A DNA stretch of 64,000 nucleotides from a virus (UHGV-1366990); one strand, 5' to 3'; counted from the stretch's first letter, positions 45,118-61,079 are shown. Made by a program: numbers and translations. Notes: generated by a model from the sequence alone, not told the origin.

Positions 45118-45248
45118 GTTAGGTTCCTCAGTGGGTTAGCCATATGGGGTATTTAGGCAGGCCTGGTTTGTACAGGACGCCTCTAGGAAATATTGGAGGA
45201 AGGTTTCATAGATACCCCACACTGGTTGTATGGGGTATTTAGGAGGGA

Positions 45249-46442
45249 TCAGGAAGGGGTGAATTCGTTTACAGGTATTGCTTCGGGGATAGCCAGTTCA
45301 GGGCATGCTGCCTTCATCGGATCGATGTATGGCTTGCTACCCACAATCCAGAACAGAGTGTTCTCGTTGAGCAACTCGGGCTTGTGTTGCTGAACCCAGG
45401 TCATGACCTTGCCTTCATAGCGAGGATGCAACTCAATATCGCCCCACTGATATTCCATCAGGTCATTGTAACGAACCCAATTAGTAGTATGAAGATCCCA
45501 ATGGTGTACCTCAAAGCGAGGAAGCACGACCTCTGGCTCTTCCTTCTGCCTGATACCACTTAGGAGGCCAGCCAGCGAAACGCTCTTAGAGGCATGCTGA
45601 AGCTCCTTCTTGCCGTGTACATAGTCTGGGTTGTCGTGATAGCGACGGGTGAAGTCGACAATGTGCGGCAGATTGGCATGTTTGCCGATGATGCGCAGAC
45701 GGCTCTCGATAAAGTCAAGGCGGTTAGGACCGATGCCGATCAGATACACGCGCTTCAGATTAGGCTTCGGGTGCATTGCCAGCCCGGTCAGGATGCTTGT
45801 GCAAGAGTTGCACGATCCGGCTGGGATGATCAGGTCGGTAATGTGATCAGGAATGTTGGCAACCTGCTCGCCACCCAGCATATGGAAGCCAGCGATGCGC
45901 TCAGGAGAATGCGCTGTATGGTCGAGGGTGATACCATACTCCAGATAATACGCCTTTGGATTCTGTTGTTCGATCAACTTCTTACAGCGCGGCTGGATCG
46001 TGCTGTTGTAACCCGATCCGACGAAGTTGAACTCACTACCAAACCAGGCTGACATTGCCACCATTTCATGGTTCATACAGGTGGTGGGTTTGGTCGCTCC
46101 GAGTACAGTGGTTGTCTTACCACCGAAGTGTCGAGAGACTGCTGTCGCCATAGGGGACTGCGGACTACCAACGACAGTACCATGGATGATGTCAGGGGAG
46201 CCTCCGGCCTTGAGGTGCTCAACCATCAACCAGATGGCCTGGCGGAGTTTGCTGCCGTTGATGCCCTGCTGTCCATTTGCATAATTGGACAGCGGCGCAA
46301 AATAATCTTCACGCTTGAACCAGACCTGCTGATTGGTTTCGGGGTTGACGACAAGTTCGCACGGGGTGTGCTTGTAGAGATAATCTTCCCAATGGACCAG
46401 GTTGCGGTCGAGGGAAAGGGTATCGAAGATGGTCATGTTCAT
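45249..46442 (-). CDS. PLP-dependent enzyme, fold type II (ACC deaminase / D-cysteine desulfhydrase-like)
   Basis: FKREDYFAPL...GINGSKLRQAIWLM resembles the ACC-deaminase family signature IKRDDL...GGNKLRKLEYL containing the PLP lysine; SD AGGAGA. Confidence 0.55.
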   Translation of the reverse strand: MNMTIFDTLSLDRNLVHWEDYLYKHTPCELVVNPETNQQVWFKREDYFAPLSNYANGQQGINGSKLRQAIWLMVEHLKAGGSPDIIHGTVVGSPQSPMATAVSRHFGGKTTTVLGATKPTTCMNHEMVAMSAWFGSEFNFVGSGYNSTIQPRCKKLIEQQNPKAYYLEYGITLDHTAHSPERIAGFHMLGGEQVANIPDHITDLIIPAGSCNSCTSILTGLAMHPKPNLKRVYLIGIGPNRLDFIESRLRIIGKHANLPHIVDFTRRYHDNPDYVHGKKELQHASKSVSLAGLLSGIRQKEEPEVVLPRFEVHHWDLHTTNWVRYNDLMEYQWGDIELHPRYEGKVMTWVQQHKPELLNENTLFWIVGSKPYIDPMKAACPELAIPEAIPVNEFTPS

Positions 46443-46511
46443 TCTATTTCTCCTGTAGACATTGGCTTATCATAGCGTATCTACAGGAATATAGAAAAGG
46501 AGAATCTCGGA

Positions 46512-47168
46512 TTACTTCTTGAACAGACGAAGGAACTTCATCATGTTTTCCATGAAAGTCGGCTTCTTGACCTTTTGTTTTACCGGAGCGCCCTGATCAT
46601 TCAGAACACGACTGACCGGAGGAGTAGGTGGTGTCGGCGCTTTCGTTTCACAGGCCGGAACGATGTTCACGTCATGATGAGAAGACTCAGATGTAGTGTT
46701 AACAACATTGTTCTCCTGGGCGACAGGCTTGACGAGATTCTTTTCATACTCGCGAGCCATGGCCTGGTACATCAGATTCAAATCCATCAGATCAACAGAC
46801 TTGACCTTGCGACGACGCCAATTGGCGCTTTCTTCGCCATAGAAATCATATCCGTTTCTGATCAGCCAGTGCACGGCTTGTTCAAACGAACCGAAGACCA
46901 TAAGTGGAGCGCCCTGGCCTTTCTCAGATTGTTCCAGGCTACCATAACCCATCAGCACAACCTGGCCTTTGATACTCAAATCAAACGTCATACCAAGGTT
47001 CGGGATGTTTTTATCGCGGCGGAAGAACCCGCCATCACGGTAGACGTAAACAGGCGACAGGAACTCATTCAGAGTGCGCTTGACACCCTTGTATTGGAAG
47101 AGTCTGGCAATTGGAGGGGTGTCATGGGAAATCACTTCGTTCAATTCCCAGATAGAAACATTACGCAT
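46512..47168 (-). CDS. hypothetical protein
   Basis: 218 aa, SD GAGGAT; Pro/Thr-rich linker near the C-terminus. Confidence 0.6.
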   Translation of the reverse strand: MRNVSIWELNEVISHDTPPIARLFQYKGVKRTLNEFLSPVYVYRDGGFFRRDKNIPNLGMTFDLSIKGQVVLMGYGSLEQSEKGQGAPLMVFGSFEQAVHWLIRNGYDFYGEESANWRRRKVKSVDLMDLNLMYQAMAREYEKNLVKPVAQENNVVNTTSESSHHDVNIVPACETKAPTPPTPPVSRVLNDQGAPVKQKVKKPTFMENMMKFLRLFKK

Positions 47169-47290
47169 TAGTGTATCCTCAAATCTATGATAGGGGGTTA
47201 ACGGTTAAATTTTAAACCCCCTTTGTATCATTGAACAAACTACGATAAAGGAGGACATGCTTGGGTCGATAAGAAGATAATAAGACAGGG

Positions 47291-47321
47291 ATAAAAAGAA
47301 AGCCGGATAGGATATCCGGCT
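47291..47321 (-). terminator. rho-independent terminator (minus strand)
   Basis: Perfect 9-bp stem AGCCGGATA/TATCCGGCT with a 3-nt loop, followed on the minus strand by TTCTTTTTAT. Confidence 0.6.
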
Positions 47322-47537
47322 ATACCACATCGATGGGATGGGTTGAAAGACTACACGCTTGCACTGGTACTACCCTATGGGAGAGCGCGTCAGGAGTCGA
47401 ACCTGAAGTCGTCGACGTAGAGAAAGCTATTTGCATTTCACTATCCTCGTCGCGATTTTCTTAACTTCCTAAACACCCGATTACGAGAGAGTCGACATGC
47501 ACATCTTCTAACTCTTCAGGAAGTCACGCCCGTAATT

Positions 47538-60480: not shown

Positions 60481-60488
60481 ATGGAATA

Positions 60489-60788
60489 TTGAATATGAAA
60501 GATTTATCCCCTTTATCTCATGCAGTTTCAGTTATTACATTGCAGTGTTTATTCGGCATGCTTGCGGGGAAATGGCTTGAAGGAGGCGTAATGGGTTGCA
60601 TGTGGTTTATCGCCCGTGAGCACACCCAGGCTGAGTATCGCTGGCTCGCTCAGTTCGGCGCAGGGAAGCGCGCCAATATGCCGTGGTGGGGAGGGTTCTC
60701 CTGGCGCGCATGGAATGTGCCCAGTCTGCTCGACTGGCTTGTGCCGGTGCTGGCGTGCACTGTCGTTTATTTCGTAGCCACACTTTAA
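60489..60788 (+). CDS. small two-TM membrane protein (paralog of 63525-63818)
   Basis: 99 aa; about 60 percent identical to the 63525-63818 product, with shared core FIAREHTQAEYRW...GKR.NMPW.GGF..RAW..PSLLDWLVPV; immediately downstream of a tailspike gene. Confidence 0.6.
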   Translation: MNMKDLSPLSHAVSVITLQCLFGMLAGKWLEGGVMGCMWFIAREHTQAEYRWLAQFGAGKRANMPWWGGFSWRAWNVPSLLDWLVPVLACTVVYFVATL

Positions 60789-60878
60789 CTCCTGGCGGGA
60801 TTATTGATAGGTATCACCGCATTGATCTGCACTGCCTTTAAAACTACTGTGTATAAAACAGTAAAAGGAGTGCAGATC

Positions 60879-61007
60879 ATGCCCCGCCGTCACGACATTC
60901 ACGCCGCATTTGTGGCCGCAATACAGCTAAACACAAAGGGCTGCCGATGCTTACGCACAGAAGACTTTATCCGCGAACTGGCAAAGGTCCACTGGTATTT
61001 CAAATAA
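60879..61007 (+). CDS. very small ORF (42 aa), speculative
   Basis: Internal ATG at 60879 of ORF 60804-61007 has a strong SD AAGGAG; product MPRRHDIHAAFVAAIQLNTKGCRCL... Confidence 0.3.
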   Translation: MPRRHDIHAAFVAAIQLNTKGCRCLRTEDFIRELAKVHWYFK

Positions 61008-61040
61008 ATGACGAACCTTGATAGGAACAGAAGCCCTTCA

Positions 61041-61079
61041 CTAAATACCCCATATTGGCAAATCCTTTATGGGGTATTT
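61041..61079 (+). promoter_or_regulatory. late-promoter-like CTAAATACCCCAT with inverted partner ATGGGGTATTT (11-bp arms)
   Basis: Motif at 61041-61053, inverted copy at 61069-61079, tailspike ATG at 61084. Same architecture as at 54883-54923. Confidence 0.45.

Follow-up and report, generated by a model that had tools for sequence, protein, structure and literature searches.

Putative late promoters within predicted hairpins over the ribosome-binding sites of tailspike and other genes in an Agtrevirus-like phage

Promoter motif and hairpins at the tailspike genes

We analysed a stretch of 64,000 nucleotides (nt) of the virus UHGV-1366990, called the window below, and in it the element CTAAATACCCC, which precedes two tailspike genes as well as homologues of two virion proteins of phage LIMEstone1 that were confirmed by mass spectrometry (MS), the products of the open reading frames (ORFs) ORF173 and ORF174. 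The window belongs to an Ackermannviridae phage (Aglimvirinae, Agtrevirus-like) with an identity of ~96% to Escherichia phage vB_EcoM-ZQ1 and ~91% to Shigella phage Ag3, and the receptor-binding parts of its tailspikes are novel by sequence comparison. The motif as such was already published: CTAAATAcCcc is one of two "unique regulatory motifs" of the Ackermannviridae ("Viunalikevirus") group and occurs at five sites in phage EspM4VN, the tailspike region included. In the GenBank record of LIMEstone1 (HE600015), TAAATA at the orthologous sites is labelled minus_10_signal, "putative late promoter", and the Ackermannviridae late promoter has been cited as an established promoter of late genes and employed for reporter expression. 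The LIMEstone1 sites orthologous to the tailspike elements of the window carry the same promoter and also the same inverted partner sequence. Our favoured reading, which we consider probable, is that a gp55-type late promoter is embedded in a hairpin that sequesters the ribosome-binding site (RBS) of the gene behind it.

A preliminary description of this DNA had located the motif, its inverted arms and two direct copies, all of which we found at their positions, and had proposed a motif census as a check. Over the window, exact copies of CTAAATACCCC number four compared with 0.49 expected, and none of 100 shuffles reached four. Two copies lie on the plus strand (54883-54893 and 61041-61051) and two on the minus strand (45156-45146 and 45242-45232). 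Three of the four are followed by the inverted partner GGGGTAT; the composite pattern ATACCCC-N5-30-GGGGTAT is found three times in the window and in none of 100 shuffles, and the three partnered hairpins rank among the best non-palindromic inverted repeats of the 64 kb. TAAATA alone is not over-represented in the window (19 copies versus 16.9 expected). Ten of these 19 copies sit 14-65 nt upstream of an ORF start with a Shine-Dalgarno (SD) sequence and an ATG, a location for which 12.3% of positions qualify (P=2.6e-5).

The first tailspike element begins 9 nt past the stop codon of the upstream gene, which encodes a structural protein of 403 amino acids (aa), and its arms (AAAUACCCCUAGAUG / CAUUUAGGGGUAUUU) form 15 pairs including one G·U (Table 1). 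At the second tailspike gene, the stem consists of 12 perfect pairs plus an inner GG/CC. The arms that had been described as 11-bp perfect repeats are therefore present, albeit longer, and in the first hairpin they include a wobble pair. At both genes the only purine-rich site is the SD candidate GGGG, 8-9 nt ahead of the ATG. Placing the transcription start (+1) by the T4 rule, according to which it follows the TATA box at a distance of about one helical turn, we compared the predicted folds of RNA that enters from upstream and of RNA that starts at the element. The read-through RNA folds at -22.3 kcal/mol (z=-6.6) at the first hairpin and at -18.8 kcal/mol (z=-3.4) at the second, whereas RNA from 54895 reaches -3.2 kcal/mol (z=+0.1) and RNA from 61053 reaches -4.9 kcal/mol (z=+1.2). 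All three partnered elements fold well when the promoter region is included, and the two tailspike RNAs from the presumed +1 fold no better than shuffled sequences.

Two other interpretations of the tailspike sites were rejected. An in-frame ATG at 54897, inside the first hairpin, was considered as the tailspike start; it is out of frame or followed by a stop in Kuttervirus, and the MANKPTQP N-terminus is conserved. The inverted copies read CAAATA and AAAATA on the opposite strand and, without the T of TAAATA, are not promoters themselves; back-to-back promoters, which would point antisense into the upstream gene, were discarded on these grounds.

The two minus-strand copies differ from each other. 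The one at 45242 had been listed as a direct copy, which it is, and its inverted partner had been overlooked: the hairpin comprises 11 pairs including one G·U, folds at -18.1 kcal/mol (z=-4.4) and presents the GGGG of its right arm 5 nt before the ATG at 45209. The gene of ~150 aa that follows this element (MKTFLEF...KPGLAKREA) is intact in LIMEstone1, where it is the MS-confirmed ORF173, in Kuttervirus and in some Agtrevirus. In the window and in Shigella phage MK-13 it is cut to its first ~8 and last ~15 codons (45183-45209 and 45157-45182, minus strand), with the upstream promoter-hairpin still intact. The copy at 45156 lacks a partner; the deleted ORF173-like gene ended at the TAA of this copy, and the gene for an acidic virion protein behind it (45117-44659) has its own free SD, GAGGAA. 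Hence, of the two copies (45143-45157 and 45229-45243) that the preliminary description had assigned to the acidic-protein gene, the proximal one would serve that gene and the distal one heads the gene remnant. The ORF173-like position with its hairpin directly follows a non-structural pyridoxal phosphate (PLP)-enzyme gene, while the unlocked acidic-protein gene, under the same promoter, follows a late gene, which is the arrangement that T4 logic predicts. The direct copies were also considered as the cause or product of repeat-mediated recombination, which we rejected, since an internal deletion left both copies standing.

Table 1. Promoter elements, hairpins and associated genes in the window and corresponding elements in LIMEstone1 (+1, presumed transcription start; SD, Shine-Dalgarno candidate)
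Feature	Position	Strand	Remarks
First CTAAATACCCC element: putative -10 box TAAATA (54884-54889) and CCCC, the proposed anti-SD extension	54883..54893	+	Site annotated in LIMEstone1
Hairpin 1, left (5') arm AAATACCCCTAGATG	54885..54899	+	+1 predicted at ~54895-54896, inside the arm, from T4 spacing
Hairpin 1, right (3') arm CATTTAGGGGTATTT	54909..54923	+	Sole SD candidate GGGG, 54915-54918
First tailspike gene, MANKPTQP..., 1079 aa	54927..58166	+	Conserved N-terminus; start annotated in LIMEstone1
Second CTAAATACCCC element, TAAATA 61042-61047	61041..61051	+	LIMEstone1 equivalent annotated as late promoter
Hairpin 2, arms 61043-61054 (AAATACCCCATA) / 61068-61079 (TATGGGGTATTT)	61043..61079	+	SD GGGG, 61071-61074; +1 predicted at ~61053-61054
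Second tailspike gene behind a promoter-hairpin, MSRPVESIFG..., 809 aa	61084..63513	+	Conserved N-terminus; start annotated in LIMEstone1
Third CTAAATACCCC element (45242-45232), arms 45238-45228 / 45222-45212, ATG 45209-45207	45207..45242	-	Heads an 8-codon remnant to 45183
Fourth CTAAATACCCC element, no inverted partner	45146..45156	-	Precedes 152-aa acidic virion protein gene (45117-44659); LIMEstone1 equivalent ORF174
Putative late promoter of gp6 (baseplate wedge), CTAAATA 50997-51003	50997..51047	+	Hairpin -17.1 kcal/mol; conserved in LIMEstone1
Element of 55-aa ORF, TAAATA 35199-35194, arms 35196-35187 (ATATCCTCGC) / 35179-35170 (GCGAGGATAT)	35163..35199	-	~-17 to -18 kcal/mol
LIMEstone1 endolysin element, TAAATACCTTCGCA ttcat TGCGGAGGTATTT tctt ATG			Arms CCUUCGCA/UGCGGAGG
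LIMEstone1 RuvC-like resolvase element, TAAATACCCATAAC ... GTTATGGGTATTTA c ATG			Arms CCCAUAAC/GUUAUGGG
LIMEstone1 ORF191 (55 aa) element			TCCTCGC / G(C/T)GAGGA
LIMEstone1 UvsW element			Imperfect

Conservation and covariation across the Ackermannviridae

From CTAAATA through the loop to GGGGTAT, the tailspike element is nearly invariant in 13-14 genomes of several genera, while its upstream flank is unrelated between genera and the adjoining N-terminal protein domain is 60-70% identical. The arms are thus retained in related phages, the absence of which the preliminary description had named as grounds for giving up its proposal. A pattern scan of viral contigs revealed at least five Ackermannviridae gene classes with the same order of parts, namely CTAAATACCCC, inner stem, loop, GGGGTAT, 5-10 nt and ATG. 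The inner stems vary by class and are always complementary (TAGATG/CATTTA, ATA/TAT, ATAC/GTGT, CAT/ATG and TAG/CTAG). In more than 10 gene classes of the family, a gap of 4-10 nt separates the right arm from the ATG. The overlap of TAAATA with the left arm is common to every class.

Covariation within orthologous tailspike elements is not assessable because these are almost invariant; the covariation evidence for the tailspike hairpins therefore consists of comparisons between classes and between genera, together with the endolysin and resolvase hairpins. One pair of the first tailspike class is G-C in Taipeivirus-like contigs, whereas Agtrevirus and Kuttervirus have G·U at this place. The resolvase stem shows a change from A-U to G-C in Serratia-type contigs and from A-U to U-A in one Taipeivirus-like contig, and Agtrevirus has an additional G after TAAATA that is compensated by an additional C in the right arm. 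These resolvase pairs were read from individual folds, as a MAFFT alignment of the leaders mis-registers the G/C insertion. The endolysin stem varies across genera solely via G·U on the sense strand, which corresponds to A·C on the other strand.

These changes also bear on whether the inverted repeat might act as DNA, be it as the site of a dimeric regulator, as a cruciform that opens the promoter or as back-to-back promoters, which we regard as very improbable. The repeats are indeed palindromic in DNA, and the resolvase right arm reads TAAATA on the opposite strand in LIMEstone1 and Agtrevirus. Moreover, a true inverted repeat is formed by the divergent TAAATAG promoters at 12019 and 12046. 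The preliminary description had grouped this site (12017-12047) with the elements of baseplate genes, an assignment that has to be replaced by two promoters for divergent genes. However, arms and spacings vary widely among genes (loops of 5-17 nt), which argues against a common protein site, and the G·U pairs that preserve the stem on the sense strand would be A·C on its complement. At the tailspike genes, the inverted copies are not TAAATA and face the wrong way, and the Kuttervirus resolvase arm has lost its opposite-strand TAAATA.

In a Kuttervirus contig (L103), an intergenic block of 115 nt is duplicated with ~95% identity before two unrelated tailspike coding sequences (CDSs; ~2660-2860 and ~4870-5070). 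The block consists of a canonical terminator, AAAAACCCCGCttcgGCGGGGTTCTTATTAT, followed after ~35 nt by the CTAAATACCCC hairpin.

The same architecture with other arms

Embedding of TAAATA in a stem over the start region is not confined to the CCCC/GGGG arms. The preliminary description had noted a TAAATA-containing element before a baseplate gene at 50997-51005; the promoter is there, and it has a partner of its own, with a different arm sequence, that had been missed. At this gene, gp6, ATCTTCA.CACC (51003-51014) pairs with GGTG.TGGAGAT (51028-51039), which contains the SD GGAG and is followed by the ATG at 51045. Likewise, the right arm of the element at 35199 (minus strand) holds the SD GAGGA, and the ATG at 35165 opens an ORF of 55 aa. 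The equivalent in LIMEstone1 is ORF191, whose arms, UCCUCGC/G(C/U)GAGGA, differ by a change from G-C to G·U. The annotation of LIMEstone1 ORF191 includes a coiled coil and a transmembrane domain. The 55-aa ORF at 35 kb could encode a small membrane protein with a role in lysis, under the same kind of gating as the endolysin.

We inspected all 33 annotated late promoters of LIMEstone1. Their consensus is (C/T)TAAATA, most of them lack CCCC, and elements of the same type were found at the endolysin, the RuvC-like resolvase, ORF191 and, in imperfect form, UvsW (Table 1). As a measure of enrichment, we counted the cases in which the translation start region forms a duplex of -12 kcal/mol or below with the 16 nt that follow the first T of TAAATA. 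Such duplexes are present at 9 of 31 TAAATA sites in LIMEstone1, compared to 4.1% of mismatched promoter/start pairs and 3 of 79 control gene starts. The corresponding values for the window are 4 of 10 sites, 5.6% of mismatched pairs and 1 of 34 control gene starts.

The inspection of LIMEstone1 also revealed two sites, 58527 and 63135 on the minus strand, at which TAAATA lies in the loop of a clear terminator (CCCCCT AAATACA GGGGGA TTTCTTTT and GGGCAC TAAATATCAC GTGCCC TTTATCTTTT) with a separate free SD downstream. In addition, several minus-strand features of HE600015 are seemingly mis-registered: the "terminators" at 54223-54250 and 92858-92885 lie one hairpin-length past real promoter hairpins, inside CDSs, and several of the "-10 signals" (63130-63135, 92918-92923 and 121728-121733) are offset by 2-7 nt or more from TAAATA.

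The spread of one arm pair over several genes raises the possibility that the promoter-hairpin of ~40 nt is primarily a portable cassette, a patch of homology for the shuffling of tailspikes and a late analogue of the promoter(early) stem-loop (PeSL) elements of the T4 type. We find this highly doubtful as the primary explanation, even though at least five gene classes share CTAAATACCCC...GGGGTAT and the unusual SD GGGG, homology between genera starts exactly at CTAAATA after unrelated upstream flanks, and the Kuttervirus block of 115 nt, terminator and promoter-hairpin together, stands in ~95% identical copies before two tailspike genes. PeSLs, furthermore, are documented composite terminator/promoter repeats that mediate insertions and deletions in T4-like phages. 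Yet the sole rearrangement that we saw, at ~45.2 kb, removed the ORF173-like gene by an internal deletion and not by recombination between the flanking copies. The boundary at CTAAATA would be expected equally if the upstream sequence is simply the variable 3' end of another gene, and the unrelated arms at endolysin, resolvase, gp6 and ORF191 are not explicable by the spread of a cassette. A cassette accounts for the spread of the element and not for its hairpin or the position of the SD, and it is compatible with a late promoter inside an RBS-masking hairpin. A combination is conceivable, although we consider it quite doubtful, in which CTAAATACCCC...GGGGTAT is a portable late promoter, RBS lock and weak terminator or insulator in one, copied before exchangeable tailspike modules and other virion genes. 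If true, each tailspike gene would be autonomous in its expression and plug-and-play, with ~40-115 nt of homology for swaps between phages, and the element would be the late-gene counterpart of PeSLs, helping host-range evolution in the Ackermannviridae.

Outside these classes, a distant relative (L186, a 148-kb contig), whose resolvase is 39% identical, carries TATAAAT, then 8 nt, then the hairpin ATGCCTTA...TAAGGCAT and TTTTATG. Here the hairpin lies just downstream of the box without overlap, and judged by this sequence the promoter-in-arm geometry may perhaps not extend beyond the core Ackermannviridae. A further hairpin in the window (4291-4339, plus strand; GTCCCCAGGGTTATA / TATAACCCTGGAGAC) has 15 bp and hides a GGAG SD 7 nt before the ATG at 4337. 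A sigma70-like TATAAT (4302-4307) is located at the end of its left arm, so the promoter-in-hairpin logic may here apply to a non-late promoter.

Several features were observed around the tailspike genes. After the stop of the first one (58345-58398), a terminator-like hairpin, CCCCATC tacg GATGGGG followed by TTATTACT, includes a relative of the motif at 58353-58370; the left side of this hairpin, AACAAACACCCCCATC, looks like a degenerate CTAAATACCCCAT. No TAAATA promoter precedes the next tailspike gene (58399), although it does have an SD of its own, AGAGG. The gap of ~600 nt before the second promoter-hairpin (60481-61040), between two tailspike genes, contains only ORFs with TTG starts (60489-60788 and 60804-61007), and ~60560-60760 is ~72-74% identical to hypothetical genes of the lambdoid coliphages ev207, Tritos and mEp460, a similarity that suggests a horizontally acquired small gene or a remnant of one. 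In an Rfam search of the window, three tRNAs alone scored above the gathering threshold, and the element hairpins match no curated RNA family. The tRNA genes (Ser-GCU, Asn-GUU and Met-CAU; 47538-48472, minus strand) lie between the baseplate genes and the PLP-enzyme region, where genes are sparse, in keeping with the tRNA cluster known for the Ackermannviridae.

A proposed late promoter inside an RBS-masking hairpin and its known counterparts

The arrangement of these elements points to the following mechanism. TAAATA would be the -10 box, and the bases that follow, CCCC and 2-6 more, would form an anti-SD arm. The inverted partner, 9-17 nt downstream, bears the only SD of the gene (GGGG) and stops 4-10 nt short of the ATG. 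Read-through RNA from upstream would contain both arms and fold at a predicted -18 to -22 kcal/mol, so that the RBS would be hidden and the gene left untranslated; the hairpin may also attenuate read-through transcripts. RNA from the own promoter, in contrast, would start ~6-7 nt after TAAATA, within the left arm, and, missing the anti-SD, would present an open leader of 30 nt and be translated. Because the left arm is the promoter itself, the transcript of this promoter could not form the hairpin, which would silence solely RNA arriving from upstream; the expression of each gated gene would depend only on its own late promoter.

This reading is carried by what the sequences show: they do not recur at random, their fold energies are low, the 3' arm holds the SD, and the elements are conserved across genera, with compensatory and wobble changes in equivalent hairpins. 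That the promoters are active late, and where they start, we infer from their resemblance to those of T4. The resemblance of TAAATA to the T4 late promoter, pointed out in the preliminary description, is supported by the -10 annotations of LIMEstone1 and by the lineage's homologues of T4 gp55, gp33 and gp45, which are annotated in LIMEstone1 and reported for AG3; the genes lie outside the window, and their presence applies at the level of the lineage. Since most late promoters of LIMEstone1 lack CCCC, this run is not a promoter requirement, and since the box of T4 late promoters is directly followed by an AT-rich segment, CCCC at this place needs another explanation, for which an anti-SD arm is the best reading. 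It had also been suggested that the partner could sequester the RBS. In support of this, the partner covers the only SD candidate, is conserved, and has counterparts with compensatory changes in equivalent hairpins; a switch acting on the gene's own late mRNA, on the other hand, is not what the geometry implies, and the presumed targets are read-through RNA and its translation.

Alternatively, the hairpin might mainly be an intrinsic terminator or insulator for upstream transcription that overlaps with the next late promoter, the masking of the SD being incidental. We think this unlikely, but it has several observations in its favour. The succession of A-tract, GC core, loop, GC core and U-rich tract (AAAUACCCC...GGGGUAUUUU) is that of ordinary terminators, which the non-Ackermannviridae matches of the pattern scan also resemble, and the LIMEstone1 record places factor-independent terminators by the late promoters of the endolysin and ORF129, at coordinates apparently shifted by one feature length. 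Overlaps of terminator and promoter do occur in the family, with TAAATA in the terminator loop at LIMEstone1 58527 and 63135, and the window itself holds the terminator-like motif relative at 58353-58370. Nevertheless, a terminator scan of 44000-63900, in which a GC-rich stem had to enclose 3-8 nt and be followed by 8 nt containing 5 or more U, calls none of the three CCCC hairpins, which have loops of 9-13 nt and fewer than 5 T in these 8 nt (tails UAUUUGAA and UAUUUUCA). U-tracts are poor in several classes (UAUUACAA, UAUCUAUG, AUAUUAUC and AUUAUCAU), and termination does not require that the hairpin include the SD of the following gene, or that it stop 4-10 nt short of the ATG in each class. 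Where the phage has a clear terminator, a separate SD follows, and in Kuttervirus the canonical terminator 35 nt upstream makes a second one redundant.

Several points weigh against a late promoter within an RBS-masking hairpin. The genes before the first tailspike gene (gp6, gp7 and the structural protein) are themselves late, so that the T4 rationale, blocking premature translation from early RNA, is not obviously applicable there. In Kuttervirus, the canonical terminator located 35 nt upstream of two elements may let little read-through arrive, and several right arms continue into a U-rich tract (UAUUUUC), a sequence compatible with termination. The copy at 45156 carries CCCC and has no partner. 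The tailspike elements are almost invariant, loops included, which suggests constraint beyond pairing. Finally, a literature search for transcription start, transcript or translation data from Ackermannviridae found none, and +1 is placed solely by analogy with T4.

Both the motif and the mechanism are known, and what looks new is the meaning of "cCcc" as an anti-SD arm. Our elements are identical in sequence and genomic position to the published CTAAATAcCcc and the LIMEstone1 late promoters; the literature on CTAAATAcCcc, of which the genus paper of Adriaenssens et al. 2012 was not covered, describes neither the inverted partner nor a role of "cCcc". For a motif that has been listed for more than 10 years as a signature of the Ackermannviridae, our reading would provide a mechanism, with "cCcc" as the anti-SD half of an RBS lock. 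This would matter for Ackermannviridae phages that are engineered for detection or biocontrol by tailspike swaps or by reporters behind "the Ackermannviridae late promoter". Whether an insert carries the right arm and SD, and where it lies relative to the left arm, should decide its translation from read-through RNA.

With intrinsic terminators, the elements share a GC-cored hairpin with an A-rich 5' side and a U-rich 3' side; they differ in their long loops, in a U-tract that is weak or absent in many classes and in a 3' arm that also serves the following gene as SD, with a fixed spacing to the ATG. Like PeSLs, they are short composite repeats of stem-loop and promoter, of which a genome has several copies, situated where variable genes begin or end. 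PeSLs, however, combine a sigma70-type early promoter with a true terminator stem-loop upstream of it, whereas here the putative late promoter lies inside the stem together with the SD, and no repeat-mediated recombination event was seen (one rearrangement, at ~45.2 kb).

The closest counterparts are found in T4. According to reviews, e (lysozyme), 49 (endonuclease VII), soc, I-TevI/II/III and segB, as well as mobE of Aeh1, have a late promoter within an RBS-sequestering hairpin; in genes of the type of e, 49, soc and I-TevI, folding keeps the long transcripts silent, and promoter-proximal ones lack the 5' arm and are translated. As in these genes, the putative late promoter here occupies the 5' arm and the SD, in T4 the SD and/or AUG, the 3' arm. 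Genes e and 49 are, with soc and I-TevI, the standard examples of such control, and their functional counterparts, the endolysin and the Holliday-junction resolvase, show the same architecture in the relatives of the window. The promoters resemble gp55-dependent late promoters in a TATAAATA-like -10 box without a -35 element, a short distance upstream of late genes. They deviate in that their core is (C/T)TAAATA and not TATAAATA, with the first two bases of the octamer not conserved, and in that CCCC follows the box in all four copies in place of the AT-rich segment of T4. The T4 hairpin genes differ in turn from those described here, where tailspike and other virion genes would be gated, at least one of which follows late genes and not an early unit, and where one arm pair (CCCC/GGGG) is reused at at least five genes; the gating is deduced here from sequence. 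The occurrence of this strategy in a distant T4-related family, on the same functional classes (endolysin and junction resolvase) and additionally on tailspike genes, suggests that promoter-in-hairpin control as known from T4 is older and wider than the Tevenvirinae.

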